Below the pieces are notes generated by a model, which saw nothing but the letters and a program-made list of their open reading frames with translations, had not been told where the DNA came from and ran no database searches. Below, in pieces: positions 28,389 through 61,941 of a DNA stretch of 64,000 nucleotides (position 1 is its first letter; each line of letters opens with the position of its first letter). The stretch spans positions 1,449 to 65,448 of the forward strand of contig CAJKLB010000005.1 in the NCBI GenBank assembly GCA_905200615.1, given 5' to 3'. This stretch comes from an uncultured Selenomonadales bacterium (GTDB lineage: Bacteria; Bacillota; Clostridia; Christensenellales; QALW01). Made by a program: the position numbers and the translations under genes.

Positions 28389-28594
28389 TTATATACCTCC
28401 TTACAGTAGCTCAAATACACTGTTCCGTGTGTGCCGCTTTTTTAAATTTTAAACGGCGGTGTGTATCTGGCTGTTCGTCCGATTTTTCCGGACAATTGTC
28501 CACGGAAATTACCCGCGCGAACGGCGGCAACCTTCCGCTTCATACCATTTACGCCGACAGGCGCAGCTGCTCCACCGCACAGAGCAACGGATTT

Positions 28595-39104: not shown

Positions 39105-39162
39105 ACACCGCCTTTCTATAATACTTCCTTATTAACCCGGAAAAAACACCGCCTTTCTATAA
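39105..39162. repeat. Two exact 17-nt direct repeats ACACCGCCTTTCTATAA (39105-39121 and 39146-39162) in a roughly 580-bp ORF-free region
   Basis: Read directly from the sequence. Confidence 0.8.
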
Positions 39163-39330
39163 GAAAATATTACAGCCGCCTAAAACAAAGAACTTTCGTC
39201 TCCCGATCTTTTATAGGCATACCGTAAGCTGAAAAATCAGCTTTTCTTCAGACAATAAAAAATTTTTTTGATTTTTATCTTACGTATAAATTCTATAAAA
39301 AACAATCTTATCCGTTTTCAATAGAAAGAA

Positions 39331-39378
39331 AACACCTATTGTATTCCTTGCCAAAAAGGTCGGAATCCAATAGGTGTT
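39331..39378 (-). terminator. Terminator hairpin (AACACCTATTG / CAATAGGTGTT) closing the phage-like operon
   Basis: Sits immediately downstream of the LysM gene stop on the minus strand. A U-tract is present on both strands. Confidence 0.6.
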
Positions 39379-39381
39379 TTT

Positions 39382-39936
39382 TTAAAGCTGACTGATTTTT
39401 CTGTTGGCGTCGGCCGTATTGCGTGAAAGTTTTGTTTTAAGCTTATTAATTTTTTCACGGTAGCTGCGCGAAAGCTCCGCTTCCTCGCCGGCCGTTTCCT
39501 GTTCCAGCTTATTCTTTTCGTTTTGAGCAATACTGGAAGTCTCAATTTTTTGTGCCGCCAAATCGCTCTCCAGTCCGATTCTGTTTTTACGCAGTGCTTG
39601 GGAAAGCTTTTGCTTTTTATAAAGATAGTCCGCGTCAGCAGACGCTTTATCCGTTTGGTAATCTTCCCGGGCACGCTGAATATCTATTTGATATTCCTCT
39701 TTCTTAGCGGCGGCCTGCTGCTGTTTTTTTTCATTTTCCGCTTCCTCTTCATCGGCCTTTTCATCCAACACTTCCGCAACAGAAAGAATAATGCGGGCGC
39801 CTTTTTTAATTTTTCCCGTCTTATAGGTTGGATTATTCTTTACAAGCTGCGCATAATCCGTTCCGGTTTTTTCTGCAATTTCCTGCAGTGTTTCGCCGCC
39901 CTGGGCGGTATAAAGCTGACTCGTCAAAAATTTCAC
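39382..39936 (-). CDS. LysM-domain protein with a C-terminal coiled coil
   Basis: YTAQGGETLQEIAEKTGTDYAQLVKNNP... (LysM), followed by a K/E/Q-rich helical tail. Confidence 0.65.
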   Translation of the reverse strand: MKFLTSQLYTAQGGETLQEIAEKTGTDYAQLVKNNPTYKTGKIKKGARIILSVAEVLDEKADEEEAENEKKQQQAAAKKEEYQIDIQRAREDYQTDKASADADYLYKKQKLSQALRKNRIGLESDLAAQKIETSSIAQNEKNKLEQETAGEEAELSRSYREKINKLKTKLSRNTADANRKISQL

Positions 39937-40316
39937 CCCAAATCAACGATTTTTGTAAGGATTTCTCCCCAAGCAACAGCTCCGCCTGTTGCGTTTACGG
40001 TAACCGTCACGCTGTTGACTCCTTTTTTAATGTCCGGACAAACAGCCGCCGAAGCATTGCCGGCGCCATGCTCAAGCAAAAGCGTGCTGCCGTTTACGGT
40101 AATACTGACCGCGGCGGAAGCTGAATTTTTTAAATAATAGCTGATATACAGTCCCTGATGCGCCTTCCAGCTGATAATGTTTTTCGTTACGGCCGTCGCA
40201 CTGCTTCCTTGGTCGATTTCGCCGACGCTGTACTTTTTTACCGCGCTGAACGCCGCGGCATTTTCAATCCACCGCAGCCGCCGTTCATTTTTTATTTTAT
40301 CCCTCTCTGTTTGCAT
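39933..40316 (-). CDS. Hypothetical phage-like structural protein (127 aa, beta-rich)
   Basis: ORF in the operon. Overlaps the next gene by 4 nt. Confidence 0.45.
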   Translation of the reverse strand: MQTERDKIKNERRLRWIENAAAFSAVKKYSVGEIDQGSSATAVTKNIISWKAHQGLYISYYLKNSASAAVSITVNGSTLLLEHGAGNASAAVCPDIKKGVNSVTVTVNATGGAVAWGEILTKIVDLG

Positions 40317-40324
40317 ATGTCCCC

Positions 40325-41839
40325 CTAAGAAACAAAATCTCTTTCCGCAGTATAGAGAAACGTAAAGGGTGAAACGGAAAAGAAACTGCCCGCCGTATTT
40401 TTTATTAAAAACCCGATCAAATGTCCTTTCAACGAGAACGGAAGTTTATAATGCCGTTCCTGACCCGAAAGTATTACTGTTTTGCTCTGTTCTTTTTCAT
40501 CGGCAAAGACCGTAATTTGTATCGGTCCGTCTCCCCAAGCGGAAAAATGAACTTCTTTTATTGTTTTCCATGCGTGCGCAAGTCCCAAATCATTTTTCGG
40601 GCTGTACCAAAACCCTTGAATTGCGCCGGAGGTAGCCATATTTTCACCTACACCCCACTCCATAACCACCGTAGTTTCACTAAAAGCAGTAAGCAGTTTT
40701 TCCGTATTCCGGTCCCGGCACACCACCATAGAAATAATTTCCGGTCCGGTGTAGATCTGCCATTGCCGGTATACTATATTGTATATGAGTAATCCGCTTT
40801 CCTCCTGCGGCGTTTTTCGATGAAACGTAAGATAATAACAATTCTTAAAATAAATGCTGCACTCCTTGCGGCAAAGAATCGTATTTTTATCAAAAAAACC
40901 TTTCAGCGCGTTACTGATGCAGGAAACTCCGCTGCCGTTACAGCTGTAAACACCATAGCGGGTGGCAAACAGCACGCAGTCACCGCAAACGGTAACGCTG
41001 CCCCGGATAATTTCACTGTCAGAAAAGAAAATATTTTCTACCGTAAAATCACTCTGTACCGAAAGCGTATTGACTGCAACAATTCCGTACCGGCAAAAAA
41101 CCAGCAGCGTATCAAAAAAAGAAACGATATCGATGGCGCTGCCGATGGTATCGGTAATATCAATATAGCCGCCTGCCTCTTCCGACGCCGTAAAATCTCC
41201 CGGATCGCCGATTTTGGAAAACCATATGCGCTGGGGATATTCCGGATCCCCGATACCGAACATTCTGGAAAAGTGCATCGCCGTCTTTTCCATATGCGGT
41301 CTTGTTTGCGAAGAAACCAGCGTATAGCTGCCGTCCTCGGTATAGATATACGGTCCGCAGTTCGGTCCGCCCAACAGCGCGCAGTTATTTTTACCGGATT
41401 TATACTGTGTGAAATAAGTATATTCCCAGCCTGTGATCCCATCGGTACAGGAAACAGGCTCGGCTTCCACTTTGGAAAGCTGTTCATTATATATAAAGCG
41501 GTAAAGATTTCCGTCCGTTGCCGTATAATAAAGATTTTTATACCCTTCGGTTTCAGAGGACGCGGCCTGAAACTCAAACAGCCGTATAATCTCTTCAGGC
41601 AGCTGGCGCAGCATGACCTCTTGTCCGCTGTCCTTTTTCCACTTTACGGCGTCAAAACCCATCGCCCGCTTTAATCTTCCGCCCTCAGTGATAACATTTT
41701 CGGCCTTGGGGCTTTCCTCTAAGGCCATAATGCTGTCATCATCGCGCATGTTCAAGCCGGCAAAGCCGTCCATCCGCACCACATATTCCTGCTGCGACGA
41801 AAGAGTTTCCAGTCTGCGCAGCGTGAGCATCAGCGCCAC
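40325..41839 (-). CDS. Hypothetical large phage-like structural protein (504 aa). Candidate tail/nozzle or stabilisation protein.
   Basis: Position downstream of the head genes. Beta-rich, aromatic-rich composition. Confidence 0.45.
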   Translation of the reverse strand: MALMLTLRRLETLSSQQEYVVRMDGFAGLNMRDDDSIMALEESPKAENVITEGGRLKRAMGFDAVKWKKDSGQEVMLRQLPEEIIRLFEFQAASSETEGYKNLYYTATDGNLYRFIYNEQLSKVEAEPVSCTDGITGWEYTYFTQYKSGKNNCALLGGPNCGPYIYTEDGSYTLVSSQTRPHMEKTAMHFSRMFGIGDPEYPQRIWFSKIGDPGDFTASEEAGGYIDITDTIGSAIDIVSFFDTLLVFCRYGIVAVNTLSVQSDFTVENIFFSDSEIIRGSVTVCGDCVLFATRYGVYSCNGSGVSCISNALKGFFDKNTILCRKECSIYFKNCYYLTFHRKTPQEESGLLIYNIVYRQWQIYTGPEIISMVVCRDRNTEKLLTAFSETTVVMEWGVGENMATSGAIQGFWYSPKNDLGLAHAWKTIKEVHFSAWGDGPIQITVFADEKEQSKTVILSGQERHYKLPFSLKGHLIGFLIKNTAGSFFSVSPFTFLYTAERDFVS

Positions 41840-42360
41840 CTCCCTGCCGGCATCGTAAAGCCGCAGCGAACTTCTTTTACATTATCCACAACATTTCTGT
41901 AACGCACATCCCATACCGCAGCCTCCGCGTGAAGATGCCGGATACTGCAGCAAAGCGACGCGGCAAAATAGATGTACGCGTACGGATCCACCTGTGTAAA
42001 AGGAATGACCGGCTCATCTTCCTCTTCCTCCATGGGAACGGGAAGATAATAATATTCCACCGTAACCCTTTGTATATTTTCACACACGTGAATAAAATCC
42101 TTACCGGCCCACGCGCCGGCTCGCAAACCGTTCAACTTAACGCTTTTAAGTCCTACAAAGCATTCGCTCAGCTGCGCGATCGGAATTTTTCCGCAGCAAA
42201 CACACATCTCTTCTACGGCTACCGGACGCCATTTATCCCGTGCAATGGTCATATACGCGGTATTGATCGCGTGTTTAATCTGATCTGTAAACGCTTCATC
42301 GTTTTCGGTTTCCTTCTCTAAAAGTTCGGCTGTACGAGCAATCATCTCTCCAAAATTCAC
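41830..42360 (-). CDS. Hypothetical protein (176 aa), candidate head-tail adaptor
   Basis: Position and size only. Confidence 0.35.
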   Translation of the reverse strand: MNFGEMIARTAELLEKETENDEAFTDQIKHAINTAYMTIARDKWRPVAVEEMCVCCGKIPIAQLSECFVGLKSVKLNGLRAGAWAGKDFIHVCENIQRVTVEYYYLPVPMEEEEDEPVIPFTQVDPYAYIYFAASLCCSIRHLHAEAAVWDVRYRNVVDNVKEVRCGFTMPAGRWR

Positions 42361-42713
42361 GCTTCTTCCCCCCCAAACGCCTCCATAACCTCTCCGGCCG
42401 TATTTTTTATTTCCCGGATCTTCCGCTCTTGCCGCAAGCTGTTTTCTCTTTCTATCTCTTTAAAAATTTCTTTTGCCCGGGCGCTTCGGTACCGCTGCAC
42501 AAATTCCACCGCTCTGGCATCCAGGCAGGGATAAGGGAGCTCCAAACAAAAGCTCCCATCCGCCTGCGCGCAGGAATGTACTTCAAATTTGCCCGTTATC
42601 CTGTTGAATAAAATAAAATAGGTATGATCAATCTGCTGTATCCTGTTTAAAACATCTAACGTATCACTCAAAACAGGAATATATTTTTCCGTGTATACTC
42701 CCGGTTGGGCCAT
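42357..42713 (-). CDS. Hypothetical protein (about 118 aa)
   Basis: ORF in the operon. The start was set at the first ATG after the capsid gene stop. Confidence 0.35.
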   Translation of the reverse strand: MAQPGVYTEKYIPVLSDTLDVLNRIQQIDHTYFILFNRITGKFEVHSCAQADGSFCLELPYPCLDARAVEFVQRYRSARAKEIFKEIERENSLRQERKIREIKNTAGEVMEAFGGEEA

Positions 42714-42739
42714 AAACAACACCTCTGCGCCTTCTTGTT

Positions 42740-43885
42740 TTATTTTTCGGTAATCCCCGTGAGCTTTGCCTGGCCGCAGGGCATACCGCATATAAGATTC
42801 GCATATTTTACCAACGTAGCGGTATAGGCCGCCTTATTGGCAAGCTGCTTCAGCACATTGCCGCTGTCGCCCTCAAGCCAGCGCCAGTCGCAAAGCTGAT
42901 GCATATCAAACACCTTGGTGTCTAAAAGATACATGGTTCCGGCCGGACAATATCTGTCAGCCACTACGGGAATACCCGAATAGCTGATCGTTTTAAAACC
43001 GCCTTCCAGCTCCACGGGACTGATATTGCGCTTAGAAGTTTCCAAATATTCCTGATAGGCTCGGCGTACTCCGTAAGAACAGGTAATAAAATCGATTTGT
43101 CCGCCGCTCTTTTCCTCTGCCGAATCAATCGCTTTTTGGATTTTAATATCCGAAATAGACGTAGTTCCGGTGCCGATAAAAGGATGCATCCAATCCTTTC
43201 CGGTACGATCCACGCCATAAAGCTGCGTACCGGAGGAAAAAAGCGTCTCCAAGCCAAAGATTTCATTATTATATGAGCCTGCCAGCACAATGATATCATC
43301 CTTTGCCACCGTAACGGGTGAAGCTAAGGTAATGCCGGAATCACTGACGGCGGTAATTTCCGCCGAAACAGAAGTGCTGCTGCCTCTGAATTCAACTTTC
43401 ATTCCGGGTTTAAGCAGCTTATAAGAATCCGCCGTAACCGTCGCGGCATTATCCACCGCCGCCGCAACCGCGGCCAATTTTCCGCTGCCGTCGCCATAAA
43501 GCATTCTTGAAAAATTCTGTTTTGCCGTTGCCAACAGCCCTTCCATTTCGGCATTAAGCAAATTCACCACCGCGCCCTGGCTGTTTTCGGAAGCACGCAT
43601 TGCCTTATCCGTAATTTCAATCGTACCGTATAGGTTTTTCAACTCTGCGCGAAACATTGCATAACTGTTTCCGTTAGCCTTGGGTAAATCACCATATTCA
43701 TCCAGCGCGGCGACGCCGGAAGAAAGATCATAGCAAACGGGTTTCACCGCCTCTTTACCGGTAATAAATGAGCTGGTTGCCTTAAATTTACTGTAAAGCG
43801 GACTGATGGAGTTATTGAGCTGATTGATCAATACATCCAAATAAAAACTCTTCAGGGCATCATTCACTGTTGAAACTGAAACCAT
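42740..43885 (-). CDS. Phage major capsid protein (381 aa)
   Basis: Its position after the scaffold gene, its size, and an N-terminus typical of HK97-fold capsid families. Confidence 0.6.
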   Translation of the reverse strand: MVSVSTVNDALKSFYLDVLINQLNNSISPLYSKFKATSSFITGKEAVKPVCYDLSSGVAALDEYGDLPKANGNSYAMFRAELKNLYGTIEITDKAMRASENSQGAVVNLLNAEMEGLLATAKQNFSRMLYGDGSGKLAAVAAAVDNAATVTADSYKLLKPGMKVEFRGSSTSVSAEITAVSDSGITLASPVTVAKDDIIVLAGSYNNEIFGLETLFSSGTQLYGVDRTGKDWMHPFIGTGTTSISDIKIQKAIDSAEEKSGGQIDFITCSYGVRRAYQEYLETSKRNISPVELEGGFKTISYSGIPVVADRYCPAGTMYLLDTKVFDMHQLCDWRWLEGDSGNVLKQLANKAAYTATLVKYANLICGMPCGQAKLTGITEK

Positions 43886-43906
43886 AATTTTCTCTCCTTT
43901 TTTTAT

Positions 43907-44431
43907 TTATTTGCGGAAAAGCGCCCGTGCCAGTTCTCCGGCCGAACGCAGCGTTGCCGGCTTGCTGTGAGCGGAAACCGGAATCGCCCCGCGTTTTTCG
44001 CACATATCCGGCGCCTGGGGAAGTGAATCGAGATACTGCCGGATAAATTTTTCCCGAATTTTTTCATTACAGAAAATATAATTCAGCAAAAAATCCTCAT
44101 CCTGCGCAAGCTGTTCCGGCGCCTGATATTTTTGGGAAAGCACGCGAGTATACGCCTTATGCAATCCCTCCGCCCCGGCCAGTGAAGCGTCCTCTTCCAG
44201 CACGCGGCAGATATCGTCAAAAAAGTCGGTCGCCCCCGGGAATTCAACCAGAAAGCTCTCAATAACCGCGTCCTCCGGTGAAGGGTCAGCCTTAAACGCC
44301 CTGTTTTCCTCCTCCAGCTGCCGAATCAGCTCTTTGGCCTTTGTCATTTCTTCCTCCATCCGGCGGTATTTTTCCTCCGCTGTTTCACCGGATATTTTTT
44401 CCTCTATTTTGCCGTCTTCATTCTTCTGCAT
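43907..44431 (-). CDS. Phage scaffolding protein (acidic, helical, 174 aa)
   Basis: E/K-rich coiled-coil composition. Lies between the portal and capsid genes. Confidence 0.5.
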   Translation of the reverse strand: MQKNEDGKIEEKISGETAEEKYRRMEEEMTKAKELIRQLEEENRAFKADPSPEDAVIESFLVEFPGATDFFDDICRVLEEDASLAGAEGLHKAYTRVLSQKYQAPEQLAQDEDFLLNYIFCNEKIREKFIRQYLDSLPQAPDMCEKRGAIPVSAHSKPATLRSAGELARALFRK

Positions 44432-46307
44432 GAGTATCCTCCTCCATTTTTATTTTGTGCTGTGCGATATGTTCTTCAAAACGTTGGTGCTGTTCGCTGT
44501 TCAAACCGAATTCTTGTTCAAACTCCTGGCTTAAAAGCATCTTGGCGTGTTCCGAAATATGAATTTCATGGTCATCGGTTTCCAGCACACGAACCTCCCC
44601 TCCGTTTTTCAGCAAAAGATTTTCTCTCTGCGCCCTATTGGTATGAAGTTCACCGATATCGGCTATATTTTCCCAATCTCCCAGACCCAGACTTCTCAAC
44701 AAACGGACTCTTGTTCTTTCCGAAAGCGCACCGCTCGCGTCCGAAAACAGCCCCTTGGCTAAAAGATCGTAGATCAGCTGCTTGCGGTTGGATATGGAGT
44801 CGGAAAGCTCATTTTCGGTTTCATGAATCACATCGTCGCTGGTAAGCATACTGGCGTTCCAATATAATTTGGAGATTTCTCCGTTTTTCCCCACAATACG
44901 TTCCAATCGCAGCTGTCCGGCAAACTGCTTAAACAACCGCAGCCATTGACGGGATATTTCCAGCACCGCGTCACGAATGCGATCCGCCGTAATCGCAAGG
45001 CGCGTATCGTCTTGCTCGGCAATCGTATTCAGTGCCACACCGCTGGTCACATTTGTCGGTGCAACAGACTGTCTCATCAAATCCGAAGTTCCGGATATCA
45101 AATTAAATTCCTCCAAAAGAGCGCTTTCCTCCTGAAAGAATTCATTGGGAAGCGCCCCGGCCGGCAGCATTTGAGGCGGATTTGTTCCCTGGCGATATAC
45201 CAATACCTTTCCCGGCGTCAAGCCGTTCTCTTCCAGATCCTCTAAATCCACCGTTCCTTCTTCCACCGCCAAAATACCCACCGCCGCACGATTTAAAAAT
45301 TCATGCTTGCGGTTCCGTACCGCGTTATAAGATCGCTGGATGGGGATGCATCGCTCCACAATGGAAATCCCCCAGATACAGCCCGGCCGAGAAATGGAAT
45401 TTTGCTGTACAAACGGAAGTTTACGCGTACCGTTATCTCCGTTGCGGTACGGCAAAGGACCTTCCCAAAGTAAAATTTCGCCGCAAACCACAAGATAGCG
45501 GCCTTCTTCATATTCTGACGAGGGCTGTTCGTAATATTCCAATACCCATGCGCTGTTCTCCGTTTCCTCCGCCGCGGCCGCGTATACCGAAGACCGATAA
45601 CCGAATCCTCCGGCCGTATCAGCGGAAGAAAAACCCAAAGCTTTTACTTTATCGGGCGGAACCTCTACTCCCCAGATATCTTGAATCATATCGCAGCTGT
45701 ATACATGAGCATGAATGACCGAAGCGCATTTTTCCACATTCTGTACATAAGGCGTGTCCGGATAAATTTCATACGGCGGACATACCGTAGTAGAAATATC
45801 TCCCTCATATATCGCGCGTCCTCCGGAATTTCTGCCCATCATTCTTCCCTTGTTGCTCACCCATGTCTGCTTATAAAAAACGGTACCGCAAAGTTCGGAC
45901 CAAACGGCCGCTTCAGCCAATATCCCATCCATCCCGATACGTTCAAACGCCGAATTCAATATGGCCGTGCTTACTTTGGCGCTTTGAATGTCCTCTTCAT
46001 CTCCTGTGGCCGGACGTACCGTCACCTGCGGCGTAATTTTATTCAGCTTAGCCAGCCGGCTTTCCACGATAGGCGCAATATGGTTATACACCTCGCGCTC
46101 CTGCCATAAAAACGCTTTATCCTGCTGATAAAGCCTTCCCGCTTCGGGCAGAATATCACAATACTGATTTCCCATAAAAAAATTGATATTCAGCTGCCAT
46201 TGTAATTCAAAGCGGCCGCGTTCGCGTGAGCGCCGCTCCAATTCCTGCCGCACATAAGCGCATAGCTCTTTTTTACGTTTTTCCTCTTTCTGTTTCAAGA
46301 TCTCCAC
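44418..46307 (-). CDS. Phage portal protein (629 aa)
   Basis: Size and its position directly after the large terminase. Confidence 0.6.
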   Translation of the reverse strand: MEILKQKEEKRKKELCAYVRQELERRSRERGRFELQWQLNINFFMGNQYCDILPEAGRLYQQDKAFLWQEREVYNHIAPIVESRLAKLNKITPQVTVRPATGDEEDIQSAKVSTAILNSAFERIGMDGILAEAAVWSELCGTVFYKQTWVSNKGRMMGRNSGGRAIYEGDISTTVCPPYEIYPDTPYVQNVEKCASVIHAHVYSCDMIQDIWGVEVPPDKVKALGFSSADTAGGFGYRSSVYAAAAEETENSAWVLEYYEQPSSEYEEGRYLVVCGEILLWEGPLPYRNGDNGTRKLPFVQQNSISRPGCIWGISIVERCIPIQRSYNAVRNRKHEFLNRAAVGILAVEEGTVDLEDLEENGLTPGKVLVYRQGTNPPQMLPAGALPNEFFQEESALLEEFNLISGTSDLMRQSVAPTNVTSGVALNTIAEQDDTRLAITADRIRDAVLEISRQWLRLFKQFAGQLRLERIVGKNGEISKLYWNASMLTSDDVIHETENELSDSISNRKQLIYDLLAKGLFSDASGALSERTRVRLLRSLGLGDWENIADIGELHTNRAQRENLLLKNGGEVRVLETDDHEIHISEHAKMLLSQEFEQEFGLNSEQHQRFEEHIAQHKIKMEEDTHAEE

Positions 46308-46312
46308 CCTCT

Positions 46313-47722
46313 CTAATTCAATTTTTTATGTCTGCTTTGCCGAAGCAGCCGTTCCATATCACGCATACAAGGTGATTTTTCAGTCCTGGGCGCCTTCGGT
46401 TCGGGATGAGACATCACATAATATCTCAACTCATCCATCGCGTGATCATCACGCTTAACAGGCGTATCCCCTTGCCCGTATCGGTATCCCTTTATTTCTC
46501 TGATCATTTCACTGCAGCAGCGGAAAATAAAAAGACGGGGCATATCCGTCCTTTTATTAAAATATTGCTTCACGCGCTGAATTCCCGTCCATAAATTTTT
46601 ATTGACGCGGCTGTTTACCGCGATGCCGAAATCATAAAACAGCTGTGCCACGCTTTTATCTGCCGAAAGCGTGTGCTGCAGCGCCGCGCTGTCCATCAGA
46701 GCCTCCACACGGCCGCCTGCGGCTTTGGGCCAATCTAACTCCTCACATTTTCGTAAAATTGCTTCACAATGCCAGCGGGCATCTTTTCCGGAAAAATAAT
46801 GCTCGGCAATCACATAAATATTTCCGTCGCCGTCTACCGCATACCAATGACACGAAAGCGGATTGACCAATCCCGGATCAATGGAAAGCTTATCGAACCA
46901 TTCCTTAGGGACTTCAAAGGGATCAATCACATGAACATTTTCATCAAATTCACTGTATACCAGTCCGCAATGGCTCATAAAATGACCGTACTGTCGGCTT
47001 TCCCGTTCACTTTCCGGCAGCAGAGCCTCCAGCATTTTGACCTCTTGCGGATTCAAGAACGGATTGTCCTGCCAACTCATGGTAATATACCATGCTTCGG
47101 GATCATGGTTTTGATTCAGATAAATCTCATCGTGAACCCAGGTCAAGCCCATCAGCGGCGTCATAGTTCCCCAAATCTCGCCGCAGGTATCCAGCACCCG
47201 CATCCGACATTCATCATAAATATCTTCCGGCGGCTCCTCATCAAACCATATCCAATCCTGGCTGGTTCCCTGAAAACGCTGCCGGCCCTGATCACAGCTT
47301 TTAAAACCAATCACCGAGGTTCCGCCATGCACGCTCTTTACCAAAATAAAATCAATTACACCCGCGTCAGGACTGTCTCCCCGGCCTTTGCGCATCACAA
47401 TTTTTTCAATCCATTCTCGGGGCAAATAAGAAAGCAGCTTTTCCTGGGCAACATCGCGCTGCACCTCCTGCGTCAAACTGACCACCCAGCCTTTAGTAGG
47501 TCCTTTTATTTGCCGAAACGGATGAATACCTCTGGCATACCATACGGCTTCCACTGCCCCGCACTCTGTTTTTCCTGTACGGTTGCCGCCGAATACCCAT
47601 CGGTTTCGTTTGCGGCAGGCATGAAATTCCATTTGCTTTTTATGTCTCTTTTCCCCCAAATTGTATCCCGCCAATTTAAACAGCTGCGGATGCTTCTGTA
47701 TTTTCTGTTCAATCTGCTTCAC
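46313..47722 (-). CDS. Phage terminase large subunit
   Basis: Walker A FGGNRTGKT. Walker B-like DWIWFDEEP. C-terminal nuclease-like region. The start was chosen at the GTG just before the terS stop (uncertain). Confidence 0.75.
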   Translation of the reverse strand: MKQIEQKIQKHPQLFKLAGYNLGEKRHKKQMEFHACRKRNRWVFGGNRTGKTECGAVEAVWYARGIHPFRQIKGPTKGWVVSLTQEVQRDVAQEKLLSYLPREWIEKIVMRKGRGDSPDAGVIDFILVKSVHGGTSVIGFKSCDQGRQRFQGTSQDWIWFDEEPPEDIYDECRMRVLDTCGEIWGTMTPLMGLTWVHDEIYLNQNHDPEAWYITMSWQDNPFLNPQEVKMLEALLPESERESRQYGHFMSHCGLVYSEFDENVHVIDPFEVPKEWFDKLSIDPGLVNPLSCHWYAVDGDGNIYVIAEHYFSGKDARWHCEAILRKCEELDWPKAAGGRVEALMDSAALQHTLSADKSVAQLFYDFGIAVNSRVNKNLWTGIQRVKQYFNKRTDMPRLFIFRCCSEMIREIKGYRYGQGDTPVKRDDHAMDELRYYVMSHPEPKAPRTEKSPCMRDMERLLRQSRHKKLN

Positions 47723-48161
47723 GGTACAATCTGCGTCTTTCAAGCAAAAGCTCCCTCGCTTCCTCGATATCCAGTTCCTCCTCCGGCTTTTGTCCGCTGT
47801 TTTCCATCCACCATTTAATCGCACTTAAATCCGGGGGCACTTCCTTTTTTATTGTTTTTTTTACCACCTGTTCATCCGTTACCGAGCCATCCTCATTCTT
47901 TCTGCCCTTACACTCGGTGGTTTCCTCCTGAGCCATATAGCCGCAGGCTCGTTTAAAAAACGCCTCCATCACCTGAAAATCAGCGTTTTTCTTCTTTTCC
48001 AACGCATCTTTCAATTCCGGATAGATTCTTTTATATCTTTGCAGCGTTCGATGGGCAATTCCCAGCATCGCTGCAAGTTCTTCCTCCCGTGCGCCGCACA
48101 TAACCAGCGTACCGATATGTTTTAAATACGGCTTTACTTTTTTTTGATACATTTCACTCAT
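47709..48161 (-). CDS. Phage terminase small subunit (HTH)
   Basis: EEELAAMLGIAHRTLQRYKRIYPELKDAL. It is the first gene of the operon, upstream of terL. Confidence 0.6.
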   Translation of the reverse strand: MSEMYQKKVKPYLKHIGTLVMCGAREEELAAMLGIAHRTLQRYKRIYPELKDALEKKKNADFQVMEAFFKRACGYMAQEETTECKGRKNEDGSVTDEQVVKKTIKKEVPPDLSAIKWWMENSGQKPEEELDIEEARELLLERRRLYREAD

Positions 48162-48448
48162 CCATACCGCCGCCTCCTAAAAAAATACGGCCGCCGAAAA
48201 AGCGTGCCGCGCTTATACTTTCAGTATATCACTGTTTTCTTTTTTCGCGCCTTGTATGTGACATCTGTTATTTCTCCTTTGTACGAATTCCGGATAGACA
48301 AAAACATTTCTTCAAGCAAAAAACGAAAACATATCTTTTACTTCTGTCTTAAGTCGGCGGATTTTTATGCTTTTCATAAAACTCATATTTTCAAAGTTCA
48401 TCAATTTTTGCTTGGTTTTTTATTTACACACTTGTTTCCATTTTTCTG

Positions 48449-48603: not shown

Positions 48604-48698
48604 GGAGACATACCCAAGTTTGGCCGAAGGGGCGCCCCTGCTAAGGGTGTAGGTCGGGAGTTACCGGCGCGAGAGTTCAAATCTCTCTGTCTCCGCCA
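48604..48698 (+). tRNA. tRNA-Ser (anticodon GCU), CCA encoded
   Basis: Acceptor GGAGACA/TGTCTCC, anticodon loop CTGCTAA, long variable arm, and T-arm AGTTCAAATCT. Confidence 0.9.
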
Positions 48699-48756: not shown

Positions 48757-48860
48757 GCTGTCCAAACGCCGGGATTTCAAGGTGCATATTCGTAGATATA
48801 AAACGGCTGTTTTTGCTTTGCGGATAGATTTGAACTCCCGTACAACAGAATAACTGCTTC

Positions 48861-48902
48861 AAACGGCAGACAAGTCGCTAAAAACTTGTCTGCCGTTTTT
48901 GT
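48861..48902 (+). terminator. Strong intrinsic terminator (perfect 15-bp stem AAACGGCAGACAAGT / ACTTGTCTGCCGTTT)
   Basis: Read directly. Followed by a T-tract. Confidence 0.7.
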
Positions 48903-48910
48903 ATTTAACT

Positions 48911-48944
48911 GCCCGAAGTTTTGCAAAAGACTTCGGGCTTTTTT
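48911..48944 (+). terminator. Second intrinsic terminator (GCCCGAAGT / ACTTCGGGC plus T6)
   Basis: Read directly. It lies 9 nt after the previous terminator. Confidence 0.7.
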
Positions 48945-48969
48945 CATTTCACGAAAAGGAGCTGACAAA

Positions 48970-49662
48970 ATGTACTTTACCAATACCCCCGCCCTCAACA
49001 GTATGGAGGCGATCATGAAAAAACTGCCCTACGGCACACAGAAAGGCGGAGGTCGGTTTCACAGATTGTATCAATACACCAAGAAAGACTGCGATTGCAG
49101 GCTTTGTCTCTACTACAGAAAAAAGAAGGGATGCACCTTGACGCTCTGTCCTGTGTTAGAAATCCGGCTTGGATGCGGCGCAGCTTCTATTAGCGATGCG
49201 ATAAAAGCTGTTTTCAAAGATGCCCAAAATACAGCATTCCAAAAACGCCTGTCACAAATATACCACCGAAAGGATGATGCAGAAATGATATTTCAAAACA
49301 ACAGGCACAAGCAGATTTTTGAAGCCGAGCGATTATCTATGCGAAAGCCCGGTAAAAAGACTCTCGCTGTTTTGTATCTGCTGACTGCCGACCATACTCT
49401 GTGGATAAAAACAAAACACCTATTCACTCCAAACGGAAAAGTGGATTTAAAAAGCGTCTGTCTCGGAAATGTTTCCACAGACATCTACGCCCTATGGAAA
49501 GCAGTTAAGGAACTGCAGACCGGCGAGAAACAAATATCGCTGTGCGAACTGGCGGACAACGGTATCGTCTCCGACAACGCGTTTCGCCTGATCGTGCAGG
49601 CAGCAGCTATCGCCCGCTTTGGTACTGCAGTCTTAAATAATACGGAGGTGCGCTATGTCTGA
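48970..49662 (+). CDS. Hypothetical ICE protein (230 aa) with a Cys-rich N-terminal segment
   Basis: An AAGGAG RBS precedes the ATG at 48970. Contains KKDCDCRLCLYYRKKKGCTLTLCP. Confidence 0.45.
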   Translation: MYFTNTPALNSMEAIMKKLPYGTQKGGGRFHRLYQYTKKDCDCRLCLYYRKKKGCTLTLCPVLEIRLGCGAASISDAIKAVFKDAQNTAFQKRLSQIYHRKDDAEMIFQNNRHKQIFEAERLSMRKPGKKTLAVLYLLTADHTLWIKTKHLFTPNGKVDLKSVCLGNVSTDIYALWKAVKELQTGEKQISLCELADNGIVSDNAFRLIVQAAAIARFGTAVLNNTEVRYV

Positions 49663-49705
49663 AAATCATAGCTTCAAAGAACAGCAGATTGGAGGAATGT
49701 GAGAT

Positions 49706-50047
49706 ATGGCCTTACTCTTTTCTAAGGTAACTGTAACGGCAGGAAATGACGCAGTAAGTTTTCTCGTTGGAGGAATTCCGAGAGAATACGATGATTTGGA
49801 TGATTGGGATGAATTCGATGATTTTCTGAAATATATCGATGAAGAAACAGAAGTGTTGGTTCATGCCAATGCTTACCTCTATGGCGAGGGAGAAACAAGC
49901 GATGCCTCCTATTCGGATATTCTGCAGTTTTCCTCACGGCTTAAATCCGGCAGCAATTTCCTTACAGATTACTGTGACAATATAGAGGAAGTAAATTTTA
50001 GCTTTACTTGGTCGCCGGAAGAATTATTTGGAATGGAGATGGAATGA
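49706..50047 (+). CDS. Small, strongly acidic protein (113 aa)
   Basis: D/E-rich sequence (YDDLDDWDEFDDFLKYIDEETE). Confidence 0.5.
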   Translation: MALLFSKVTVTAGNDAVSFLVGGIPREYDDLDDWDEFDDFLKYIDEETEVLVHANAYLYGEGETSDASYSDILQFSSRLKSGSNFLTDYCDNIEEVNFSFTWSPEELFGMEME

Positions 50048-50048
50048 G

Positions 50049-50594
50049 ATGAACAAATTAGAAGCAGAACGGCGCTTTGCACAGCGTATGAAGGACAACT
50101 ACCCACCCGGCACACGCATCATGCTTTTGCAGATGGGCGATGATCCCCACCCCATCGAGCCGAACACAAGAGGTACGGTCGAAGTTGTCGATGATATGGG
50201 AACGCTGCACTGTATTTTTGATAATGGCAGACAGCTTGGTATTGTTCCCGGCGAGGACAATTTCCGCAGGCTCACCGATCAGGAGCTTGCAGAAGAAAAG
50301 GACAGCCAGAAAAGACAATTGACAGAAATGTCAGAGGATGAGTTATATGAAAGGAATATCATTAGGTTCGACAACTTTGATGATTTTTTTGATTTCATCT
50401 ACGATGAGAACACCGACAAAGCTGATATTATCAACGATATGTCCCAACAGATGAAAAGGCAGCTTGTTTCAGAGAATTACGGTGAACGGTTTATTGAAGC
50501 AGACGGCGCGTTTTATTACAATTCCGAATGCTTCACACAGATGGCTTTACTGCAGAGTGACGAAGAAGATAACGCTCCCGTTTACGGAATGTGA
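50049..50594 (+). CDS. DUF4314-domain protein
   Basis: PGTRIMLLQMGDDPHPIEPNTRGTVEVVDDMGTLHCIFDNGRQLGIVPGEDNFRRL matches the DUF4314 pattern as recalled from memory. Confidence 0.55.
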   Translation: MNKLEAERRFAQRMKDNYPPGTRIMLLQMGDDPHPIEPNTRGTVEVVDDMGTLHCIFDNGRQLGIVPGEDNFRRLTDQELAEEKDSQKRQLTEMSEDELYERNIIRFDNFDDFFDFIYDENTDKADIINDMSQQMKRQLVSENYGERFIEADGAFYYNSECFTQMALLQSDEEDNAPVYGM

Positions 50595-50633
50595 GGTGGC
50601 ACGAAAAATAAATAGAAAGCGGTCGGATTTACT

Positions 50634-51740
50634 ATGCCAATCCGATTTTTTGATATGTTTGCAGGGATCGGCGGTTTCCGCTCAGGACTGGAAGCAGTCG
50701 GCGGCTACGAATGCATCGGTCACTGCGAGATAGATAAATATACAAATCAGGCATATAACGCTATCTACAATCCAAAAGGAGAACTGTATTTTGAAGACGC
50801 AAGAACTATCAACCCAAATGACCTGCCCGACATCGATCTCATCTGTGCGGGCTTTCCATGCCAAAGCTTCTCGGTTGCCGGAAAACGGCTCGGATTTGCA
50901 GACGATACAAGAGGAACTCTCTTCTTTGAGGTTGCCCGAATCGCTGAGGCGAAACGGCCTGCATATCTTCTCCTGGAAAATGTCCCCGGTTTGTTATCGC
51001 ATGACGGCGGCAGGACGCTTACTACCATCTTCTCCACGCTTACTGAGCTGGGGTATGATCTCGAATGGTGTGTGCATAACAGCGCAAATTTCGGAGTCCC
51101 GCAGCAGCGAAGGCGGCTGTACATTGTCGCAAGTTTTGGAGGACGAGGTGCCGGACGGATATTTCCTCTCACCTGCGGCAATGCGGAAAATCTTAAAGAG
51201 CTTATCCCCGGACCGCAGGGAGCGAGAGTTTACGAAACACACGGAGTAGCCTGCACGCAGACAGCAGGCTCCGGCGGATGGGGCGGTAAAACAGGATTGT
51301 ATTTTATTGATATGAATGTTAATCCCATCATTACCGATACAGCCCGATGCATTACGGCAAGACAGGACAGCGGAGTCAGCAATCACAGAGGCGAACACTC
51401 GGCTGTCCTTGTCACAGATGAGCCGAGGGCGATCCTTACACCCGACAGGGAGAAAGTCAGGCAGCAAGGCAGACGCATCAAAGAACCAAACGAGCCGATG
51501 TTCACGATAACGGCGCAGGATCGGCACGGCGTATGGCACAAAGGCAGAATCCGAAAGCTCATGCCGATCGAGTGCTGGCGCCTGCAGGGTTTCACCGATG
51601 AACAGTTTTACAAAGCACAGGCCACAGGTCTCTCGGACGGTCGGCTATACAAAATGGCGGGCAACGCGGTGAGCGTTCCCGTCATTTCTGCTATCGGGCA
51701 GAAAATCAAAGAAATTTACTATGAACAGGAGAAAAAATAA
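50634..51740 (+). CDS. DNA (cytosine-5)-methyltransferase
   Basis: Motif I FDMFAGIGGF, motif IV GFPCQSFS, motif VI ENV, motif VIII QRRRLYIV, and C-terminal GNAV. Confidence 0.9.
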   Translation: MPIRFFDMFAGIGGFRSGLEAVGGYECIGHCEIDKYTNQAYNAIYNPKGELYFEDARTINPNDLPDIDLICAGFPCQSFSVAGKRLGFADDTRGTLFFEVARIAEAKRPAYLLLENVPGLLSHDGGRTLTTIFSTLTELGYDLEWCVHNSANFGVPQQRRRLYIVASFGGRGAGRIFPLTCGNAENLKELIPGPQGARVYETHGVACTQTAGSGGWGGKTGLYFIDMNVNPIITDTARCITARQDSGVSNHRGEHSAVLVTDEPRAILTPDREKVRQQGRRIKEPNEPMFTITAQDRHGVWHKGRIRKLMPIECWRLQGFTDEQFYKAQATGLSDGRLYKMAGNAVSVPVISAIGQKIKEIYYEQEKK

Positions 51741-52793
51741 ATGCCGAATCATGTTGAAAACCATATATCGCTGCAAGGCGATCCCGCACAAATCCGCACC
51801 ATGCTGAAAGCCATACAGTCCGACGAGTATGGGATCGGCTCTGTGGATTTCAATAAGATCATCCCCATGCCGGAAAGCCTTAATATCGAAGCGGGCAGCC
51901 GAACCGACCGGGGATTGAAAGCCTACCGGGATTTTATCGAGGCGTATACTGCCGGACGGCCGGCAGAAGATGCATTAAAAGCGCTGGAAAACATTCCTGC
52001 GGAAAGCGAGGAAGCCTTTTTACGCCGGCGGACGGATATCAAGCACGATGAATGGGAGCTGGGCAAAACTGCATGGAATAATATCCGGCAGTACGGCGCC
52101 CCCACATGGTATGATTGGTGTATTGCGAACTGGGGAACAAAATGGAACGCCTATGGATACGATGATACAATCGACTATCATGACGGCACACCTCTGTATT
52201 TTCAAACCGCATGGTCTGCTCCTCATCCTGTCCTTGAAAAGCTGACGGAGATGTTTCCCGAAATTGAACTGGAACACGAATGGGCAGACGAGGATATCGG
52301 GCAGAACTGCGGCAGGTACAGCTATCGGGGCGGCGAGCGCATCGAAGAATACTTCCCCGAAAGTGAAAAGGAGGCAATTGAATTTGCCTGCCGGGTATGG
52401 GATTACGATCCGCTTGATATGGATTTGTGCCTGAATGCCGAGGGGACGAAATATATCAATGTAGAAAATGAGGGATATCAGCAGATCGAACTGCTGGGCA
52501 AGCCTGCCCTGTTTACCAATGCCCGCCTGACGGATGCGGATATCCCGCAGGGACTGTACTGCTATCACCTGCGGCACAGCGATGACGGCGGCCGCTTCTG
52601 CTCGGTTGAACCAAGGGTGGGCGTCAATCACGGCGGCAGCGTTATCACAAAAGAACCGATTGATTTCGGAAAACAGGGATATATTTCTTTTACCGAGGAC
52701 ACCGAACCAAACTTCATCGGCGGAGAAGAAACGCTTGGAGAATTTCTCCGTTCGGATACACCGCAGGAAAGCGAGGTGATGATGCTGTGCTGA
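51741..52793 (+). CDS. DUF1281-like N-terminal domain plus LPD28-like C-terminal domain (polyvalent-protein-type module)
   Basis: N-terminal part has WCIANWGTKWNAYGY. C-terminal part has LFTNARLTDADIPQGLYCYHLRHSDDG. Confidence 0.5.
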   Translation: MPNHVENHISLQGDPAQIRTMLKAIQSDEYGIGSVDFNKIIPMPESLNIEAGSRTDRGLKAYRDFIEAYTAGRPAEDALKALENIPAESEEAFLRRRTDIKHDEWELGKTAWNNIRQYGAPTWYDWCIANWGTKWNAYGYDDTIDYHDGTPLYFQTAWSAPHPVLEKLTEMFPEIELEHEWADEDIGQNCGRYSYRGGERIEEYFPESEKEAIEFACRVWDYDPLDMDLCLNAEGTKYINVENEGYQQIELLGKPALFTNARLTDADIPQGLYCYHLRHSDDGGRFCSVEPRVGVNHGGSVITKEPIDFGKQGYISFTEDTEPNFIGGEETLGEFLRSDTPQESEVMMLC

Positions 52794-52924
52794 ACTTTAT
52801 CGTCGGTCTGCTGCTTGGCGGCTGTATTGCAGCAAGCGTACTTTGCTGTATACAGATCAACCGCACAGGATACTACGAACGGGAAATCCGCAGACTCCAG
52901 GCAAAACTGAATAACAAGGAATAA
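52787..52924 (+). CDS. DUF3789-like small membrane protein (45 aa, GTG start)
   Basis: Hand translation gives VLNFIVGLLLGGCIAASVLCCIQINRTGYYEREIRRLQAKLNNKE. It is below the ORF-track cutoff. Confidence 0.45.
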   Translation: MLNFIVGLLLGGCIAASVLCCIQINRTGYYEREIRRLQAKLNNKE

Positions 52925-53048
52925 GGGACGAGGTCGTTTTGCGTGTACGAAGCAATCGTACATGGAAAACGGTCTCGTTTTCTTTTTGTGCCGTGTATTC
53001 GTACACGCAGACGCCTCCGCAGGGAGGTGATCAATAATCAACAGCTTT

Positions 53049-53903
53049 ATGGCATGGGTGGGCGGAAAAAAGGCGCTGCGGGATGAAATCCTTGCCCGGT
53101 TTCCGCTGGATTACAAGCGGTATATCGAAGTGTTCGGCGGCGCAGGCTGGGTGCTGTTCCATAAACCGCCCGGAAACGATTTTGAAGTGTTCAACGATTT
53201 CAACGGCAATCTCGTCAATCTGTACCGTTGTGTGCGGGAGCAGCCGGAAAAGCTCTGCAACGAACTGCGGTATCTGCTGAACTCCCGTCTTGATTTTGAA
53301 TATATGAAGCAGATGCTCCACTCGCAGGCGGTTCTGCCCGATGTGCGCAGAGCCGCCTACTACTATGCGCTCATCCGTTACAGCTACGCAGCCGGAACCT
53401 CCACCTTCGGCAGCCAGCCCCACGCCATGTGGAACAATTTTCCCCTGATAGAAGCGGCGGCGTGCAGGCTGCAGAAAGTGATTGTCGAAAACAAGGACTG
53501 CAAAAAGCTCATTACGCAGTACGACCGGCCGGAGAGCTTCTTCTACTGCGATCCGCCGTATTATCAGGCGGATCGGTACTACGAAGCGGTGTCAGCGGAC
53601 GGCTTCGACCATCAGGGATTGGCGGAAACGCTGTTTGGCATCAAGGGCAAATTCCTGCTGTCATATAACGACTGCGCATTCATCCGGGAGCTGTATACCC
53701 GCCCCGGCATCGTGATCGAGGGAACGACAAGGCTCTCCAATATCGCACAGCGGTACGATAACGGAAAGCAGTACCCCGAACTTTTGATCTCCAACTACGA
53801 CACTACCGAGCTTGCCCGATCCTGTGTTCAGCTCACGCTGTTTAACGAGCTTGACACGCAGGAAATCTTAAACGAAAGGATACTTTACAATGGAACGATA
53901 TGA
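53049..53903 (+). CDS. DNA adenine methyltransferase (Dam / D12 class N6-MTase)
   Basis: WVGGKKALRDEI..., FGGAGWV, and the catalytic motif YCDPPYY. Confidence 0.88.
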   Translation: MAWVGGKKALRDEILARFPLDYKRYIEVFGGAGWVLFHKPPGNDFEVFNDFNGNLVNLYRCVREQPEKLCNELRYLLNSRLDFEYMKQMLHSQAVLPDVRRAAYYYALIRYSYAAGTSTFGSQPHAMWNNFPLIEAAACRLQKVIVENKDCKKLITQYDRPESFFYCDPPYYQADRYYEAVSADGFDHQGLAETLFGIKGKFLLSYNDCAFIRELYTRPGIVIEGTTRLSNIAQRYDNGKQYPELLISNYDTTELARSCVQLTLFNELDTQEILNERILYNGTI

Positions 53904-54129
53904 ATTTGAAATGATCCCCGTACCTGCAGAGACACTGGATGCTGTGGGAATTACTCCCGGCGTAACGGTGGAAGCATTTGCAGACGGCAGCCACATCGTC
54001 ATTCAGAAGGCGCCGGAGGATGACTTCTGCGAATCCTACAACGAGGACTGCGAGGGCTGCCCTTACTGCTGCCCCTGCTGCGGCGAATGCCTGAAAGAAC
54101 AATTCGGCGGAGGTGAAGATGGTGAATAA
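53890..54129 (+). CDS. AbrB/SpoVT-fold-like small protein with a C-terminal Cys cluster
   Basis: IPVPAETLDAVGITPGVTVEAFADGSHIVIQK, followed by CESYNEDCEGCPYCCPCCGEC. Confidence 0.45.
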   Translation: MERYEFEMIPVPAETLDAVGITPGVTVEAFADGSHIVIQKAPEDDFCESYNEDCEGCPYCCPCCGECLKEQFGGGEDGE

Positions 54130-54478
54130 GCTGTACCGCATTCTCGGAAAGCGAGGACGGATCACGATCCCCTATGAAATCAGGCGGCGCGTCGGATTTC
54201 AGTATAACGATGTGCTGTCCTTTACCGAGAAGGACGACCGCACCGTTGTGGTCAGACGGGAAAAAATCTGCGATAACTGCAAAGGAACACGGCCTGCTGT
54301 CAATAAGCAGGTGGACGGCATCACGCTGCTGCAGTTTCTGGACAGCCTTTCTGGCGAGGAACAACGGGCGGCGCTCATCCATCTGTCCGTAAAATGGGCG
54401 GAGCAGCAAGCCTGCGGCACGGATGAAAAAACAATGGAGGAAAGGAAATTGCAGAATGAAAATAAAAGCACAAATTGA
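54119..54478 (+). CDS. AbrB/MazE/SpoVT-family DNA-binding protein
   Basis: LGKRGRITIPYEIRRRVGFQYNDVLSFTEKDDRTVVVR. Confidence 0.6.
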   Translation: MVNKLYRILGKRGRITIPYEIRRRVGFQYNDVLSFTEKDDRTVVVRREKICDNCKGTRPAVNKQVDGITLLQFLDSLSGEEQRAALIHLSVKWAEQQACGTDEKTMEERKLQNENKSTN

Positions 54479-54797
54479 CCGCTTTATCGGAAAGGACAAC
54501 CGCATCAAGGCATATGCCAGCGTGATTCTCGGCGGCGAGTATGTCGTTCGGGATATTGCCGTGATGGACAGCAAAAACGGTCTGTTCGCAAGAATGCCCT
54601 GCCGGTCGTATAAAGACCGAAACGGCAATACGCAGTATTCGGATGTAGTGTTCGCGCTGAACGAAACCTCCCGCAATGCTGTCAGCGACGCGGTTCTGGA
54701 AGCCTACGAGCAGCGGCTGCACATGGAGGAAAATGAGTCGCAGGATTATGAAGAACAGGAGGAAAATGAAACCCCGGCTTTCGAGCAGAGGATGTGA
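54456..54797 (+). CDS. SpoVG-family protein
   Basis: IKAYASVILGGEYVVRDIAVMDSKNGLFARMP.R.YKDRNG....DVVFALN. Confidence 0.7.
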   Translation: MKIKAQIDRFIGKDNRIKAYASVILGGEYVVRDIAVMDSKNGLFARMPCRSYKDRNGNTQYSDVVFALNETSRNAVSDAVLEAYEQRLHMEENESQDYEEQEENETPAFEQRM

Positions 54798-54872
54798 CTT
54801 TTTTCAAAAAACATCTCATTCTCGCTGGACTTTCCGGTTTTTATCGGTATGCTGTAGGTAGAGGTGATCCGT

Positions 54873-55574: not shown

Positions 55575-55603
55575 ACCAAAATCAAAACGGAATATTTCAT
55601 GTT

Positions 55604-55636
55604 AAACGCACTGTGTAAAAACCACGGTGCGTTTTT
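55604..55636 (+). terminator. Terminator-like hairpin between the lipoprotein and adhesin genes
   Basis: AAACGCACTGTG / CACGGTGCGTTT plus a T-run. Confidence 0.45.
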
Positions 55637-55658
55637 CATTTCAACAGGAGGTTTTCAA

Positions 55659-60035: not shown

Positions 60036-60191
60036 CCGAAAAAAGATGGTAGTGAAGCGGAGCCGTTGCAGCCGCGCTTGCAAGGATGCAGGCGGAGCAA
60101 ACGAGTCTTTTTTTGGAGAGGAGGAGCAGCGGCGAGAGCGAGTTTTTCGCCATAAGGCGGAAACGAGCGTTTCAAAGCTTGCGACGACGAA

Positions 60192-60862: not shown

Positions 60863-60902
60863 CCGATAGAACAGAGCCGTCCCGAAAAAACGGGGCGGCT
60901 GA

Positions 60903-61853: not shown

Positions 61854-61941
61854 CAAAAGAAGCAAACTTTCTGTGAAATATGGATTTTCCTCTTGATATT
61901 ATTTCGGTATGCCGATATAATAATAGTGAGAGGTGATTCCT

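Follow-up and report, generated by a model that had tools for sequence, protein, structure and literature searches.

What kind of element is a compact operon of phage head, packaging and tail genes that stands in bacterial chromosomal DNA beside a pair of tRNA genes? The question is raised by a stretch of 64,000 nucleotides (hereafter the window) on contig CAJKLB010000005.1 of an uncultured Selenomonadales bacterium, placed in the Christensenellales by GTDB, in which ten co-directional open reading frames (ORFs) run on the minus strand from 48161 to 39382, neighbours abutting or overlapping. We consider it likely that they form the main operon of a domesticated, podovirus-derived element resembling a gene transfer agent (GTA), that is, a viriform, which a clade of uncultured gut Clostridia would pass on vertically as part of the chromosome. 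This reading is based on purifying selection, host-like composition, synteny across species, the lack of mobility genes, and a promoter common to this operon and, in relatives, a fibre/holin operon. Such an element is already known from FpGTA of Faecalibacterium prausnitzii (Borodovich et al., Nat Commun 2026, PMC12946183), and by analogy the window operon would be a further member of the GTA-like elements.

When genes were called independently on same-species contigs from other samples, the identical ten genes resulted, with the lengths listed in Table 1, in agreement with the packed, co-directional genes and the coordinates of the initial annotation. Scanning the operon and the DNA on either side of it against Pfam, PHROG and NCBIfam also bore out its labels for terS, terL, the portal and the capsid gene. 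In detail, the large terminase subunit TerL (g2) reaches 476 aa from a TTG start codon, while its longest ORF extends to 47824, and it carries the Walker A (GGNRTGKT) and Walker B (WIWFDEE) motifs. The major capsid protein (MCP, g5) was matched by NF033394 capsid_maj_Podo of NCBIfam (254 bits) and by phrog_14242 (7e-55). For the small terminase subunit TerS (g1), the helix-turn-helix (HTH) named earlier is possible at the N-terminus, where similarity to LuxR-type HTH domains is weak. No family matched g4 or g6 in the Pfam and PHROG scans; with iterative profiles, 103 of 104 loci had a g4 homologue in the corresponding place, and g6 homologues occurred at 38 loci. PDB sequence searches with the MCP profile, the portal and TerS gave no useful match. 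The single closing terminator was confirmed, its 22-nt arms being 91% complementary, its hairpin reaching −26.3 kcal/mol (z = −5.35), and a U-rich tract following; Rfam identified no regulatory RNA at the operon locus.

Four proteins (118, 176, 504 and 127 aa) had been left without function, and the profile and structure searches proposed for them placed two, the 176-aa and the 504-aa (here 501-aa) ones, in a podovirus tail. The sole Pfam match of the g7 family was PF24175 SU10_adaptor, found at 6e-4 for g7 itself and for nine of 32 family members (best 3.9e-7), while the family profile gave E = 0.24 against the SU10 adaptor chain 7z47_A; g7 is thus predicted to be an SU10-type adaptor. The AlphaFold2 (AF2) model of g8 (pLDDT 86, pTM 0.87) adopts a beta-propeller fold, whose top Foldseek matches were the tails of Pa223 (TM 0.75), VP1, SU10 and GP4, followed by P22 gp10 (8u10, 8eap), Sf6 gp8 and T7 gp12. 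Together with a profile match to 7z47_G (2e-4), the model identifies g8 as a predicted podovirus tail nozzle like P22 gp10 or the SU10 nozzle; its family comprised 1996 clusters at 50% identity, nearly all of 460–510 aa, and a cluster look-up of ten nozzle-family proteins gave neither names nor accessions. With an adaptor and a nozzle, the operon would encode a head and a podovirus tail hub rather than a head alone, so the earlier description as capsid and packaging genes only was too narrow, and tail genes are lacking only as regards long-tail parts.

The two remaining tail candidates are assigned more cautiously, and g6 and g9 still lack a firm assignment, as stated at first. The AF2 model of g9, built from six input sequences (pLDDT 77), shows an N-terminal helix and an eight-stranded jelly roll with weak matches to fibre heads, host-specificity protein J and carbohydrate-binding modules. 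With low confidence, this model suggests a tail-tip protein or a receptor-binding knob, and iterative profiles confined g9 to 14 loci of the window's clade. For g10, the coiled coil of the initial annotation was retained, while its LysM match was borderline (20.0 bits against a cut-off of 20.9; 6.5e-4) and specific to the window's clade. The C-terminal part of g10 was homologous to DUF7934-like proteins of about 309 aa (hhalign probability 95.5%, E = 1.4e-8), which come after the nozzle gene at 51 other loci. By sequence homology, g10 is a conserved component of the wider operon family, and it is a candidate peptidoglycan-binding needle or fibre.

The region before terS was conserved as well. 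In 10 of 10 aligned clade members, ATGTCACAT was followed after 24–25 nt by TGnTATACT, and a consensus scan of the operon strand detected no full sigma-70 promoter. The composite promoter motif was defined as ATGTCACAT-N24-25-TGNTATACT. In 3.3 Mb of collected loci, it occurred 13 times, 12 of them before terS, and its strict form was found at 42 places in the 596 Gb of all species representatives. These comprised six clade operon promoters, three second sites on other contigs of operon-carrying metagenome-assembled genomes (MAGs; L001, L006 and L017), and 33 other matches, which set the chance expectation at about 1e-4 matches per genome of that size.

In the L001 and L006 MAGs, the second site precedes a conserved operon, the first gene of which is 87% identical between both and whose predicted products are listed in Table 1 (a fibre/holin operon of this kind lies at L211:5001–7975); in the L017 MAG, the sequence after the motif (L200) breaks off. 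The N-terminus of the 509-aa product resembles a Faecalibacterium phage protein. Hence, a rare promoter is common to the main operon and to a fibre/holin operon in relatives. The window operon can accordingly no longer be called self-contained, as it had been, since fibre and lysis functions would probably come from a second locus. A hairpin and T-run similar to those before terS were found in the second-operon leaders. The hairpin before terS was not more stable than shuffled sequence, and an attenuator is for this reason not claimed. An exact match of the composite promoter was also observed in an uncultured Clostridia MAG (L187:834–876), followed by a hairpin and T-run with no obvious ORF on the same strand; this site may belong to the regulon too or have arisen by chance.

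Table 1. Features of the window operon, its promoter region and the second operon of two relatives (positions in the window; empty cells, no value).
Feature	Position	Strand	Basis or remark
g1, TerS, small terminase subunit, 150 aa	47709..48161	−	phrog_309 match, 1.9e-26
g2, TerL, large terminase subunit, 476 aa	46313..47743	−	PF03237 Terminase_6N and phrog_2
g3, portal protein, 626 aa	44418..46298	−	PF16510 P22_portal, 6.4e-21; PF23899 SU10_portal; phrog_156
g4, putative acidic scaffolding protein, 174 aa	43907..44431	−	position and composition
g5, MCP, podovirus type, 381 aa	42740..43885	−	NF033394
g6, 118-aa protein between capsid and adaptor genes	42357..42713	−	role unassigned
g7, predicted head-to-tail adaptor, SU10 type, 176 aa	41830..42360	−	PF24175 SU10_adaptor
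g8, predicted tail nozzle, 501 aa	40325..41830	−	AF2 model, Foldseek, profile
g9, 127-aa protein, N-terminal helix and jelly-roll domain	39933..40316	−	AF2 model
g10, 184 aa, N-terminal LysM (borderline) and K/E/A-rich coiled coil	39382..39936	−	Pfam, hhalign
Intrinsic terminator, end of operon	39326..39383	−	inverted repeat (arms 39326–39347 and 39362–39383) and U-rich tract
9-bp palindrome ATGTCACAT, candidate operator or activator site	48256..48264	−	ends 27 nt upstream of the −10 hexamer
Extended −10 element TGATATACT	48223..48231	−	no sigma-70 −35 at normal spacing
5′ leader: small GC hairpin, T-run, AGGAGG ribosome-binding site (48173–48178)	48162..48222	−	sequence, clade alignment
Second operon: 509-aa tail-fibre-like protein			segment 48–50% identical to annotated C. 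difficile phage tail fibre proteins
Second operon: 157-aa protein			no phage match
Second operon: small membrane protein			phage homologues, function unannotated
Second operon: 91-aa holin			38–40% identical to annotated phage holins
Second operon: 106-aa protein			SH3-like in appearance, judged by eye from sequence

The distribution of the operon was consistent with a fixed chromosomal locus. Nine species representatives carried the full order from terS to g10 at 45–93% identity, and the proposed synteny comparison located the tRNA-Ser pair directly and divergently upstream of terS in six of the nine. In five clade species (among L001, L003, L005, L006, L008 and L009), the stretch after the g10 homologue consisted of the terminator and one or two very strong TTGACA-17-TATAAT promoters and reached the contig end within 150–500 nt. 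No 16S sequence was found on the clade contigs that end after the operon. These promoters probably belong to a ribosomal RNA (rrn) operon, giving the order tRNA-Ser, operon, rrn; such an rRNA operon would explain the frequent MAG contig breaks at this place. Just past the tRNA-Ser pair, a Gut-1 RNA (RF01706, 78 bits) was observed in two clade members (L008:5024–5098 and L009:128–202).

Beyond the clade, no fewer than 598 species representatives were found to have a relative of the MCP; among those listed, many carry the label Christensenellaceae or Christensenella, others Ca. Borkfalkia or unnamed Clostridia. In the contexts examined, the relatives formed a compact cluster amid smpB, rnr, secG, ispG, rimP, nusA, infB and an aminoacyl-tRNA synthetase gene, with no integrase, replication or lysis family, and close relatives were never found inside complete prophages, the finding that would have refuted the initial annotation. 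Of the 104 loci, 96 had an adaptor and 88 a nozzle by iterative profiles. The 140 representative ORFs flanking about 100 loci matched 123 Pfam families, each in at most two ORFs; all 25 families listed were of housekeeping or unknown function, without any mobility function or recurrent integrase. In a sister clade of eight species, the cluster adjoins ispG-rimP-nusA, and TerL (0.74) and MCP (0.73) were conserved to the level of NusA (0.77) and IspG (0.70). Because the distances were alike and even RimP correlated poorly in an underpowered co-divergence test of cluster against housekeeping genes in these eight species, only the equal level of divergence is used here.

The sister clades also carry accessory genes. 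At L020, L013 and L103 plus about 40 loci, a protein of about 850 aa with weak beta-propeller matches is encoded on the opposite strand upstream of terL; the same sister-clade loci have an opposite-strand gene of about 250 aa and a protein of about 170 aa weakly resembling phage transcriptional regulators, and an ORF of about 100 aa lies between terL and the portal gene in sister clades. No homologue of the accessory proteins of about 850, 250, 170 and 300 aa was found in the window or its clade, nor one of the ORF of about 100 aa in the window, and the scanned representatives of accessory genes recurring beside the cluster included no mobility family.

Among GenBank phages, the closest capsid proteins reached at most about 25–26% identity (Arthrobacter and Microbacterium phages) and the nozzle was unmatched, and IMG/VR yielded no close relative. 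Tail and fibre PHROGs were found with two distant relatives on long IMG/VR contigs (L154 and L165), possibly true phages that share the head type. In two other IMG/VR loci, paired large serine recombinases of 510–536 aa lie inside the cluster (L130:3376–6515 and L143:5867–9026): only TerL residues 303–496 remain after the recombinases in L130, and the capsid gene of L143 begins at residue 22. In L156 and L138, terL is also shortened. It seems that other mobile DNA targets these cluster genes, or that an excisable element splits them. The integrases on long IMG/VR contigs were rejected as the element's own, being serine recombinase pairs on DNA that interrupts terL or the capsid gene.

Purifying selection was then assessed from the ratio of nonsynonymous to synonymous substitution (dN/dS), as had been proposed. 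Against the nearest species representatives, L006 and L001 (MCP identity 89–93%), the ten genes were intact, with dN/dS of 0.04–0.31 at a dS of about 0.5–1.8; over all pairs of the nine clade members, median dN/dS was 0.06–0.26 and dN stayed far under dS throughout, the dN/dS values being approximate since dS was near saturation (1.0–2.5). GC content at third codon positions (GC3) was 0.502 in the operon, 0.505 in the housekeeping genes of the window, and 0.602 in adjacent DNA resembling an integrative and conjugative element (ICE), and the overall GC of the operon (0.476) equalled that of the window housekeeping genes. These results indicated that the operon is not decaying, as its intact frames had suggested from the start. 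A single gene was broken among clade members, the terS homologue at L004:5884–6328, which spans two frames because of a genuine frameshift or a mistake in the MAG assembly; of the two signs of decay considered earlier, relaxed selection was not seen, and a possible frameshift in this one case.

The same conservation would apply equally if the host kept a phage-like particle for a use other than DNA transfer, such as killing, release of DNA or other contents by controlled lysis, or a decoy for phages or immune factors. The LysM match of the last protein would suggest cell-wall binding, and PBSX of Bacillus subtilis sets a precedent, as it packages DNA yet works as a bacteriocin (PMC12946183). 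However, TerS (dN/dS 0.06–0.10) and TerL (0.04) were among the most constrained genes (compare 0.04 for the MCP and 0.10–0.12 for g6), indicating that DNA packaging itself is under selection, and podovirus particles have no contractile killing apparatus. A non-transfer particle is therefore judged unlikely.

Quite improbable is a recently stranded, inactive prophage remnant, intact in appearance only. The operon lacks integrase, replication, immunity and lysis genes, and the frameshifted terS of L004 and the disrupted terL or MCP of several distant relatives would fit such an origin. On the other hand, the ten genes are under purifying selection while synonymous sites are nearly saturated between species, their composition is host-like, the locus and its promoter are conserved between species, and relatives possess a second operon behind a matching promoter.

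The flanks bear on whether the operon is instead a capsid-forming satellite (a capsid-forming phage-inducible chromosomal island, cf-PICI) that needs a helper phage for induction, tails and lysis. On the left stand AraC, RpiB, alcohol dehydrogenase (ADH) and ROK/RPE (epimerase) genes, and on the right tRNA-Ser(tga) and tRNA-Ser(gct), which have a perfect sigma-70 promoter and point away from the operon. The S10/spc ribosomal operons and further housekeeping genes in the window show that the DNA is chromosomal; an S10-Clostridia ribosomal protein leader (RF03136, 36.7 bits; 28475–28551) lies upstream of the S10 operon, an ordinary chromosomal context. The sugar genes and tRNA pair given as flanks at first were found as described, whereas the DNA beyond the tRNAs is not plain chromosome. 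An ICE-like region (48886–64000) begins just past the pair and extends beyond the window edge, with DUF4314, C5 and D12 DNA methyltransferases, an LPD28 polyvalent-protein domain, a 1478-aa SpaA/TQ-ester/thioester adhesin, TrbL, and an HTH and HipA pair.

A compact capsid and packaging module beside tRNA genes, with a TerS that could redirect packaging, would suit a satellite. However, no integrase, repressor, replication or lysis family was identified among the scanned ORFs of the window, and no convincing attachment-site repeats in the flanks, where direct repeats did not exceed chance. The operon lies at the 5′ side of the tRNAs, facing away, and not at their 3′ end, so this is not the geometry left by tRNA 3′-end integration. 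Its own adaptor and nozzle mean that borrowed tails are not needed. The locus is also the same between species, with no mobility family in the scanned recurring accessory genes or the 140 flank ORFs. Taken together, a satellite is very improbable. An inverted 18-nt copy (48823–48840, 89% complementary) of the T-arm region of tRNA-Ser(gct) (48670–48687) was observed 135 nt downstream of that tRNA and may be a scar or attachment-site remnant of element integration. Two exact 17-nt direct repeats of ACACCGCCTTTCTATAA (39105–39121 and 39146–39162, 41 nt apart) lie inside the 586-bp non-coding spacer between the operon terminator and the convergent AraC gene. That the operon is part or cargo of the conjugative element beyond the tRNA genes is extremely improbable: ICE-like genes (TrbL, methyltransferases, adhesin) do begin about 700 bp from terS, but two tRNA genes and a strong promoter stand between, relatives have the operon without these genes, and GC3 differs (0.50 vs. 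0.60).

Among the three readings offered by the initial annotation, the domesticated GTA-like element was thus sustained, while the satellite and the decaying remnant were not. Besides the near-saturated dS, several points weigh against it. The operon is known from its sequence only, from which we infer expression, particle production and induction, the particles themselves, and their packaged DNA and other contents. A partner fibre/holin operon in the window's own genome is a prediction, as it would lie beyond the 64 kb, and the second operon of L001 and L006 showed no recognisable catalytic endolysin. The possible HTH of TerS would fit site-specific over random packaging. The frameshifted terS of L004 and the interrupted terL and MCP genes of distant relatives show that loss does occur. 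Finally, the FpGTA capsid is of the N4-gp56 family by its NCBI name (PMC12946183), while the window MCP matches NF033394.

If the domesticated GTA-like reading holds, the system would work as follows. A host factor would act at the ATGTCACAT palindrome just upstream of the extended −10 promoter, and a single transcript would cover the genes from terS down to the terminator. A small procapsid would be assembled from scaffold, capsid protein and portal, and TerS and TerL would fill it with DNA by a headful mechanism. The portal would be closed by the adaptor and nozzle, and the tail tip completed by the jelly-roll protein and the LysM/coiled-coil protein. Another operon at a different place in the genome, driven by the same promoter, would provide fibre and lysis functions, as observed in the pair of species most closely related. 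What is packaged would probably be host DNA, in pieces too short for the whole system.

A broader proposal is put forward tentatively, at somewhat below even chance: an ancient podovirus-type GTA family may extend across the order Christensenellales in at least about 600 species, be controlled as a small regulon through the operator ATGTCACATACAAG and an extended −10 element, and be the source of the 4–6-kb packaging in Christensenellales viromes. GTA-type packaging has recently been reported as the commonest capsid-mediated DNA mobilisation in human gut viromes, and for Christensenellales the FpGTA report gives it for HGM11616 (about 4.1 kb) and QANA01 (about 6.3 kb), the locus not being named there (PMC12946183). 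The responsible GTA genes have so far been pinned down only in Faecalibacterium. The window locus would be a concrete candidate for such packaging in Christensenellales and related uncultured Clostridia, whose parts are defined: the ten genes, the promoter together with its operator and, in relatives, a partner fibre/holin operon. The rarity of the promoter motif makes it usable as a genome-wide probe for the remaining regulon. If the broader proposal were true, the family would rank as the largest among known GTAs outside Alphaproteobacteria and as a main channel by which genes move in a gut lineage that is highly heritable; should the particles be active, a built-in DNA exchange device would be common to hundreds of gut species.

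Compared with known systems, the window operon follows the morphogenetic gene order of phage P22 (3-2-1-8-5-4-10-26), halting before the ejection proteins, and its portal, adaptor and nozzle match the folds or families of the podoviruses P22, Sf6 and SU10. It differs from these phages in having no ejection proteins, tailspike, lysis cassette, integrase, immunity or replication genes; among the scanned ORFs of the window, too, ejection proteins, a receptor-binding spike or fibre, a lysis cassette and a lysogeny module were absent. Sheath, tube, baseplate and tape-measure families gave no match, the tail parts found being of podovirus type. The missing integrase, repressor, replication, lysis and long-tail genes noted at first were hence not found here either, with the adaptor and nozzle as the correction to that list.

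GTAs of the RcGTA type in Alphaproteobacteria are built like siphoviruses and possess a prohead protease, a tape measure and a tail tube; CtrA and GafA control them. The window operon resembles them in host-kept phage structural genes under purifying selection, in a probable split over several loci, in vertical inheritance and in the lack of a replication or integration module, while its particle would be podovirus-like rather than siphovirus-like. The cf-PICIs carry an integrase, a regulator and a replication module and hijack helper tails. They share with the window operon a compact terS, terL, portal and capsid module without long-tail genes, whereas the window operon has no integrase, regulator or replication module and would encode its own tail hub.

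The closest likeness in gene order is to FpGTA. FpGTA operons I and II lie at CP030777 2536737–2546346 and 2672270–2677176 (RCH50844–RCH50853). Operon I has ten ORFs, coding for TerS, TerL (RCH50852), portal (RCH50851), a scaffold-position protein (RCH50850), MCP (RCH50849), adaptor (RCH50847), a nozzle modelled on PDB 8eap (RCH50846) and the 'TolA-like' RCH50844, which had the third-highest spectral count in the particle preparation (PMC12946183). By accession order, RCH50845 and RCH50848 would be its two unannotated genes. Genes for baseplate, fibre, receptor-binding, holin and endolysin proteins form the second operon, about 125 kb away, and the particles are about 40 nm, tailless in look, with about 8.5–9 kb of DNA (PMC12946183). 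By gene positions and published descriptions, FpGTA differs from the window operon in host lineage, in a TerS described without a DNA-binding domain, where the window TerS may have an HTH, and in the LysM domain of the window's last protein. With their different capsid family names, the two may be distant relatives or parallel domestications. Judged by the same positions and descriptions, the order of operon I matches that of the window operon gene for gene, both ending with an adaptor, a nozzle, an unknown protein and a K/E/A-rich protein ('TolA-like' in FpGTA). FpGTA also has a distant fibre/holin operon, as do relatives of the window operon in their MAGs; neither system has an integrase or replication module, and the FpGTA host, too, is a Gram-positive gut anaerobe.

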